Source of the DNA: Hydrolagus colliei
Taxonomy: Eukaryota
Direction of reading: 5' to 3'
DNA length: 64,000 nt
Assembly: GCA_035084275.1 (NCBI GenBank)
Contig: CM068751.1
Span: 2,356,001-2,420,000, forward strand
The notes under the pieces were generated by a model. The model saw nothing but the letters and a program-made list of their open reading frames with translations. It ran no database searches and was not told the origin of the DNA. Below are positions 41,110 to 41,419 of the stretch, in pieces. A program made the translations under genes and the position numbers. Within the stretch, counting starts at the first letter, position 1. Every line of letters starts with the position of its first letter.

Positions 41110-41215
41110 TTGTAATATCAAAGACAACAACAGCTACAGTGGAATCACGTATGTAGCTGGGAATCAAGCTTCGGAATCGCTCTTGCCCTGCTGTGTCCCA
41201 CAACTGCAACCGCAC
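41110..41215 (-). CDS. RAB6B: RAB6B alternative exon 4, RAB6A-type ([35 protein letters not shown])
   Basis: gctag| acceptor, |gtgagt donor, 106 nt, phase 0 to 1, no stops; not in the ORF track. Confidence 0.93.
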
Positions 41216-41313
41216 CTAGCATGAGGGTGAACCACAGAAATAAAGAAAAAAGAGGGACAAAAATAAAAGGAATGAAACATTGAAAATATAGCTGACAATA
41301 TTCAGACACCTAC

Positions 41314-41419
41314 TTGTAATATCATAGACTACAACAGCTGCTGCCGAATCTCGGATATAACTGGGAATGAGACTACGGAAGCGCTCTTGGCCTGCTGTGT
41401 CCCACAGCTGAAGCCTGAT
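41314..41419 (-). CDS. RAB6B: RAB6B alternative exon 4, RAB6A'-type ([35 protein letters not shown])
   Basis: ctacag| acceptor, |gtaggt donor, 106 nt, phase 0 to 1. Confidence 0.93.

Follow-up and report, generated by a model that had tools for sequence, protein, structure and literature searches.

The RAB6B gene in the window (the whole stretch of 64,000 nucleotides analyzed here) carries two versions of its exon 4, termed 4a and 4b, which lie next to each other and encode the forms known from human RAB6A' and RAB6A, respectively. The two exons are most probably ancient tandem duplicates inherited from the RAB6 gene before its split, and the fish probably continues to use either exon when RAB6B is spliced. 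A single vertebrate RAB6 gene with both exons would thus have given rise to RAB6A, RAB6B, and RAB41.

Both copies are located on the minus strand, are bounded by AG and GT, share a length of 106 nt and the same phase, and are separated by an intron of 98 nt, all as the initial annotation had described. Being adjacent and homologous, of equal length and phase, and equipped with canonical splice sites, they have the makings of a mutually exclusive pair. Within the Rab6 switch II region, 4a encodes I62/A87/A88/Y93 and 4b encodes V62/T87/V88/F93. The initial annotation had read the three residues correctly in both copies (I/A/A versus V/T/V) but overlooked the fourth difference at residue 93, where 4b carries a phenylalanine (Y93F) and both 4a and human RAB6B carry a tyrosine. 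Most of the remaining differences are synonymous, as had been proposed, with 16 of the 22 differing bases (out of 106) falling into codons that keep their residue. The human RAB6A' exon (supplement of PMC8373072) and PDB 1yzq have exactly the peptide of 4a, while the 4b peptide equals the RAB6A and RAB6B structures in the PDB apart from Y93F. A chance origin of the pair is excluded, since 4a and 4b form the sole direct-repeat family of at least 25 nt within positions 40900-48950 (109 nt, 81%) and both translate into a Rab6 peptide (PDB match, E about 1e-17).

Table 1. Features of the RAB6B locus. Positions are those of the window unless a genome contig is given.
Feature	Position	Strand	Length	Remarks
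RAB6B exon 1	G000:C18:2498087-2498156			Beyond the window
RAB6B exon 2	G000:C18:2425491-2425549			Beyond the window
RAB6B exon 3	48814..48867	-	54 nt	Phase 0 at its end; an RNA-type contig of a relative links it to 4b
RAB6B exon 4a	41314..41419	-	106 nt	I62/A87/A88 (RAB6A'-type); donor GTAGGT
Intron between 4a and 4b	41216..41313	-	98 nt	Motif scan
RAB6B exon 4b	41110..41215	-	106 nt	V62/T87/V88/F93 (RAB6A/RAB6B-type); donor GTGAGT; spliced in run X2
Candidate shared splicing element behind 4b	40852..41101	-		Intronic, pyrimidine-rich; weak similarity to RAB6A of modest significance
RAB6B exon 5	34732..34843	-	112 nt	
RAB6B exon 6	13159..13252	-	94 nt	6b copy of a second, ancient exon pair
RAB6B exon 7	10592..10658	-	67 nt	
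RAB6B exon 8	9889..9953	-		Coding part and stop codon
SRPRB exon	2752..2898	+		Tail-to-tail neighbor; PF09439 match, E 9.9e-11

Counting one exon 4, the RAB6B coding sequence comprises eight exons and 624 nt, equal to 208 codons. Exons 3-8 fall within the window, and exons 1-2 lie as far as 78 kb beyond it. The junction positions 48814 and 34843 suggested earlier coincide with the true boundaries of exons 3 and 5. Intron 3 contains four inverted repeat pairs (window 43336-47489; 69-449 nt, 91-94% identity), which are located 2-6 kb upstream of 4a and are probably retroelement copies.

The assignment of the gene to RAB6B is supported by its SRPRB neighbor, its C-terminus, and its position in a gene tree. 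The SRPRB exon lies tail-to-tail with the gene, as expected for a RAB6B orthologue, and human RAB6B presumably has the same neighbor in the same orientation. Using the exon-8 frame as a query returned 23 proteins, 21 of them named, of which 20 are RAB6B and one is hypothetical/RAB6B, meaning that every named match is called RAB6B by at least one source. In a gene tree with 26 rows, for which we used exons 1-3 and 7-8 but not exons 4-6, the five rows closest to the window gene are RAB6B, with strong support confined to 1 of 22 branches. The RAB6B-type C-terminus and the weakly supported tree position thus both agree with a RAB6B orthologue. The initial annotation had arrived at the same gene partly through QITTEEGEQRAKE and SAKTG, which instead mark exon 6b and are also present in RAB41 and many fish RAB6A proteins. 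The one other RAB6 locus found in this genome (G000:C6:25.27-25.29 Mb) has FAM168A at a distance of 150 kb and clusters with shark RAB6A (95/76), which identifies it as RAB6A and the animal as a cartilaginous fish.

Comparison of RAB6B 4a with RAB6A 4a revealed 16 silent changes and one replacement change (dS 1.31, dN 0.013), and the two 4b exons gave a dS of 0.86 and a dN of 0.013. Both copies are therefore under coding constraint, as the members of a mutually exclusive pair would be. The sole replacement in 4a occurred on the RAB6A side, given that the window 4a has the human and shark residue. By this measure, exon 4a is under strong purifying selection, and any neutral spell following a loss of function must, at the 5% level, have been no longer than about 0.036 substitutions per site. 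The same genome provides a standard for a dead copy in the form of a RAB6A 6b remnant, which shows about 14 replacement changes in 25 codons and has no acceptor.

No run recorded as RNA contains the 3' end of the gene, the runs listed being small-share ones from another organism, and this result has no bearing on expression. We examined RNA-type contigs of a related organism from four of 10 presumptive RNA runs. In run X2, a contig covers exactly 41110-41215, and its loose ends match exon 3 and the start of exon 5, indicating that exons 3, 4b, and 5 are spliced together. On 40500-43300, none of the four runs covers 4a; X2 covers only 4b, and X1, X3, and X4 show no cover anywhere on this interval, although such blanks can be false. 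Furthermore, contigs lose rare variants, and the filter removes some. The X2 contig stops 19 nt into exon 5, and the last 11 nt of 4a and 4b are identical, which sums to 30. These assemblies use k = 31, and a break at 30 fits a 31-mer assembly with a merging 4a path, which provides a weak hint of 4a use. The hint is weakened by the unbroken passage of the contig through exon 3, where a well-used 4a path should break it, and by the silent position at base 20 of exon 5, at which an allele could end the contig. While splicing of 4b is thus observed in the RNA of the relative, use of 4a in RAB6B mRNA is likely, with RAB6B 4a known from one genome.

It is unlikely that the pair is ancient but 4a of RAB6B has recently gone out of use without having decayed yet. 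The contigs with 4b only and the absence of 4a from 155 of 155 bony-vertebrate proteins, which makes it dispensable elsewhere, would agree with recent disuse, as would the neutral time still allowed by the bound given above. However, 4a has accumulated zero replacement changes relative to the human RAB6A' peptide and its splice sites are intact, so that its loss must fall into the short last slice of a branch with a dS of about 0.65, and the tendency of such contigs to drop rare variants lessens the weight of the missing 4a cover.

Each copy of exon 4 is 3n+1 long. When 4a and 4b are joined computationally, a stop is reached 71 nt into 4b, and when both are skipped, a stop is reached at codon 63; retention of the 98-nt intron likewise leads to an in-frame stop. 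As a result of the stops with both exons or neither, only mRNAs with one exon 4 yield protein. By the rules of nonsense-mediated decay, double-inclusion and double-skip mRNAs would be removed. A protein from both copies or from neither is precluded by the frame, and the single X2 contig skips 4a.

A motif scan of the 98-nt intron revealed a 74-nt AG-free zone, a long pyrimidine tract, and, as motif candidates, branch-point-like adenines that lie, counted from the 4a donor, at +12, +41, +50, and +73, the last of them in the ordinary -26 position. The steric limit between donor and branch point is roughly 50 nt (PMC5740500, PMC7969005). With candidates at +12, +41, and +50 inside this limit but another at -26, steric exclusion is possible, if unproven, and could, by means of a branch point close to the 4a donor, also keep 4a from being joined to 4b. 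Behind 4b, 250 nt of intron are closer to their RAB6A counterpart than in all five of the control intron pairs. This similarity is reached by 0 of 1000 plain shuffles and 13 of 1000 block shuffles, and the signal is absent at 100 nt (163 of 1000 shuffles), so that we see here a weak sign of a splicing element shared by RAB6A and RAB6B. Upstream of 4a and between the exons, with the splice sites excluded, intronic similarity to RAB6A is at chance level.

The same stops raise the prospect of 4a serving mainly as a poison exon, which, joined to 4b or with the short intron kept, would commit RAB6B mRNA to decay. An early stop follows from double inclusion, the retained intron ends in one in frame, and reads joining mutually exclusive exons have been reported in 22% of frame-shifting clusters (Hatje 2017). 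Such a role would nevertheless have no need for 35 of 35 residues kept over 16 silent changes, which renders it decidedly unlikely compared with a protein-coding use of 4a.

To place the pair in time, we compared it with RAB6A on C6, which contains 4a followed by 4b at a distance of 87 nt; its donors read GTAGGT and GTGAGTGA, and the 4b acceptor reads GCTAG. The exon order, the donors, and the 4b acceptor exactly match those of RAB6B in the window. Identity across genes within the same exon type amounts to 84.0% for 4a and 86.8% for 4b, compared to 79.2 and 77.4% between 4a and 4b within a gene and 72.6 and 79.2% crosswise. Among the informative sites of the 31 invariant codons, 6 favor grouping by exon type, against 2 that favor grouping by gene and none that favors the crosswise arrangement (binomial p 0.02), and in the splice flanks all five informative sites group by exon type (5:0:0). 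An AU test on the four sequences rejected both the by-gene tree (p 0.049) and the crosswise tree (p 0.024). The exon tree suggested by the initial annotation, here made up of four exons, thus clusters by exon type and not by gene, as expected if the pair stems from the same event as RAB6A/RAB6A'. With a dS of 1.23, 4a and 4b of RAB6B are no further apart than 4a of RAB6B and RAB6A (1.31), which places silent sites near saturation; the exon-type grouping, drawn from four near-saturated sequences with a borderline AU p value, offers moderate support.

RAB41 extends this comparison to a third paralog. Among RAB41-type predicted proteins (from the best 120 of 6868 matches to a 4a query), 4a is found in 50 of 61 and 4b in 59 of 61, the 4a fraction being inflated by the choice of query. 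Gene predictors often string both exons together, and they do so in the same order. Given its presence in RAB6A, RAB6B, and RAB41, the duplication likely predates the split of the three genes. Both sea-cucumber Rab6 and fly Rab6 (PDB 2y8e) are of the V/T/V form, which points to 4b as ancestral-like and 4a as derived. Taken together, type-wise grouping, the pair in RAB41, and the matched order and splice sites support the view, proposed in the initial annotation, that RAB6B and RAB6A/A' have homologous exon pairs, which arose before the gene duplication. A separate origin of the RAB6B pair, through lineage-specific duplication with convergence or gene conversion from RAB6A, could draw on the similar dS values, the two by-gene sites, and the independent occurrence of A87/A88 in Plasmodium Rab6 (PDB 1d5c), but is very improbable given that the quartet and AU tests favor exon type, splice donors and acceptors agree within each exon type, RAB41 shares both the pair and its order, and the divergence between the two 4a exons resembles that of the constitutive exon 3 (dS 1.5), which argues against recent conversion.

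Individual 4a exons vary among the paralogs. RAB6A 4a of this animal (G000:C6:25282460-25282565) has V62 in place of the I62 present in catshark, bamboo shark, whale shark, stingray, and human, leaving only A87/A88 as constant marks of the A' type. The 4a exons of bird and reptile RAB41 have drifted (AVA, VIVF; P0041-P0062, P0092-P0096), and in passerines the residues just after the switch II motif are missing. This drift suggests decay or a new function.

In bony vertebrates, RAB6B appears to lack 4a. We collected 178 RAB6B-type proteins of bony vertebrates by exon-6-to-8 queries blind to exon 4 (best 120 of 1822 matches) and from cluster lists, with 29 of 349 proteins left out as unclassified. 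Exon 4 is present in 155 of them, and 4a in 0 of these 155, which are annotated proteins, not genomic DNA, and include many near-duplicates. They cover bichir, gar, bowfin, teleosts, frogs, turtles, squamates, a bird, and mammals, but not cartilaginous fish, coelacanth, or lungfish; among the cluster members listed (15 of up to 196), no cartilaginous-fish RAB6B was found. Overall, the searches retrieved no RAB6B of a shark, ray, coelacanth, lungfish, or lamprey. Since non-mammals are part of this count, the loss looks older than mammals. The earlier suggestion that mammals may have lost RAB6B' fits this absence, which is not specific to mammals. The simplest reading of these proteins is that 4a was lost from RAB6B on the bony-vertebrate stem.

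Two further features of bony-vertebrate RAB6B emerged from this set. About 30 proteins of ray-finned fish (P0183-P0185, P0285, and P0306, among others) carry an insert of 3-11 residues between exon 3 and 4b, at the site of the lost 4a, which probably reflects an alternative acceptor. An in-frame stop at the 4b acceptor rules out such an insert in the window RAB6B. In addition, mammals, turtles, and kiwi have an annotated RAB6B isoform of 104 residues from which exons 4-6 are missing (P0126, P0146-P0148).

Exon 6 likewise comes in two versions, 6a (AKAG) and 6b (AKTG), with the evidence from other genomes consisting of predicted proteins. Of 81 RAB6A-type proteins, 20, all from ray-finned fish, contain both forms in a single prediction, as do 15 of 61 RAB41-type proteins, sturgeon included, while bird RAB41 predictions contain 6a or 6b. 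RefSeq isoforms of RAB6A from salmon, clownfish, and seahorse combine 4a with 6b. RAB6B-type proteins contain 6b in 171 of 178 cases and 6a in none, and sea-cucumber Rab6 has 6a. In the genome studied here, RAB6A on C6 has kept 6a intact, and about 330 nt behind it lies a decayed copy (25274856-25274930, minus strand) with a score of 79, which was reached by 0 of 1000 shuffles. This copy matches 6b at two of three diagnostic residues and has kept its donor, while its 5' end and acceptor are lost. A search for a 6a remnant in intron 5 of RAB6B brought up nothing convincing, with a best E of 0.019 (five queries, 32% identity), compared to 1.7e-6 for the control remnant. No RAB41 locus was found in own-genome searches or in the 200 kb around the C6 arrestin, which reflects either loss or an assembly gap, and the C6 arrestin at that site looks beta-arrestin-like.

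Arrestin matches are paired between C18:0.49-0.53 Mb and C6:89.95-89.99 Mb, and FAM168A/B-like genes are found at C6:25.12 Mb and C18:4.49 Mb. This placement fits C6 and C18 being paralogous blocks.

These observations suggest that the ancestral RAB6 gene probably had two exon pairs, 4 and 6. Paralogs hold different copies of the exon 6 pair, as in isoform separation, with human RAB6A likely having kept 6a and RAB6B having kept 6b. With RAB41 not found and RAB6A 6b dead, RAB6B is the sole gene here able to make a 4a+6b protein. We tentatively propose that ancestral RAB6 was a two-by-two cassette (4a/4b, 6a/6b), that human RAB6B is frozen in the 4b+6b form, and that different ohnologs kept 4a+6b. 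Just as tentatively, this combination may be made through RAB41 or RAB6A in ray-finned fish and sauropsids and through RAB6B in this fish. The 4a+6b protein appears to be absent from mammals and would not be encountered in mammalian work. If the cassette is true, part of the difference between RAB6A and RAB6B would represent sorted ancestral splicing, not later divergence, and the exon 6 pair suggests which of these differences are old splice variants.

Residue 87 is said, in work by Echard from 2000, to affect KIF20A binding. Human RAB6A' differs from RAB6A by three residues and binds KIF20A less well (bioRxiv 10.1101/2023.01.05.522745; PMC10392741); the excerpted text of PMC5665954 makes no mention of T87. 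RAB6B', the 4a form, would swap the residues that make human RAB6A' the poorer partner and, by analogy, may be shifted in KIF20A binding in the same manner. RAB6 is the main Golgi Rab, and the reasons for having RAB6A, RAB6A', and a neuronal RAB6B are loosely understood (PMC10392741). In this context, our results date the A/A' switch before the vertebrate gene duplications and provide a natural RAB6B' for testing residues 87 and 88 on a RAB6B background, although the interest is limited to specialists in Rab proteins and splicing evolution. In the openly accessible literature, we found no paper on a RAB6B' isoform or the exon 6 pair; cartilaginous-fish gene models in databases may already hold RAB6B'.

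Among known systems, the closest is human RAB6A/RAB6A', which features the same exon of 106 nt, the same 4a-4b order with a 66-nt gap (supplement coordinates, PMC8373072), the same I/A/A versus V/T/V residues, and a short intron. What differs here is the presence of the pair in RAB6B and a 4b with Y93F. Existing catalogues list the human RAB6A event and date it to Vertebrata (PMC8373072, event 172; also PMC9741552, PMC5740500), and the human catalogues searched in these three sources contain no entry for RAB6B or RAB41. The short intron, long pyrimidine tract, and AG-free zone resemble those of OGDH exons 4a/4b (PMC7969005), where the branch points have been mapped, whereas those of RAB6B are motif candidates. 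The sorting of 6a and 6b, with 6a in human RAB6A and 6b in RAB6B, is similar to the splice isoform separation of MARVELD3 and U2AF1 (Abascal 2015), but differs from it in that ray-finned RAB6A and RAB41 and bird RAB41 keep both forms. In the same study (PMC4494069), which assembled 21 clusters from 54 human genes, the species covered include no cartilaginous fish. Its RAB6A row leaves 'conserved in human paralogs' blank and gives 2/2 for zebrafish, meaning both duplicates, and 'conserved in two orthologs' for coelacanth, with the second gene unnamed; retention of the pair in a second gene is thus already glimpsed there. More generally, ohnologs sharing exon pairs are a known kind of event, as in the clusters of Abascal 2015 (PMC4494069) and SCN exon 5a/5b (PMC12772994), where, as for RAB6, the pair predates the gene duplication and is kept in more than one ohnolog.
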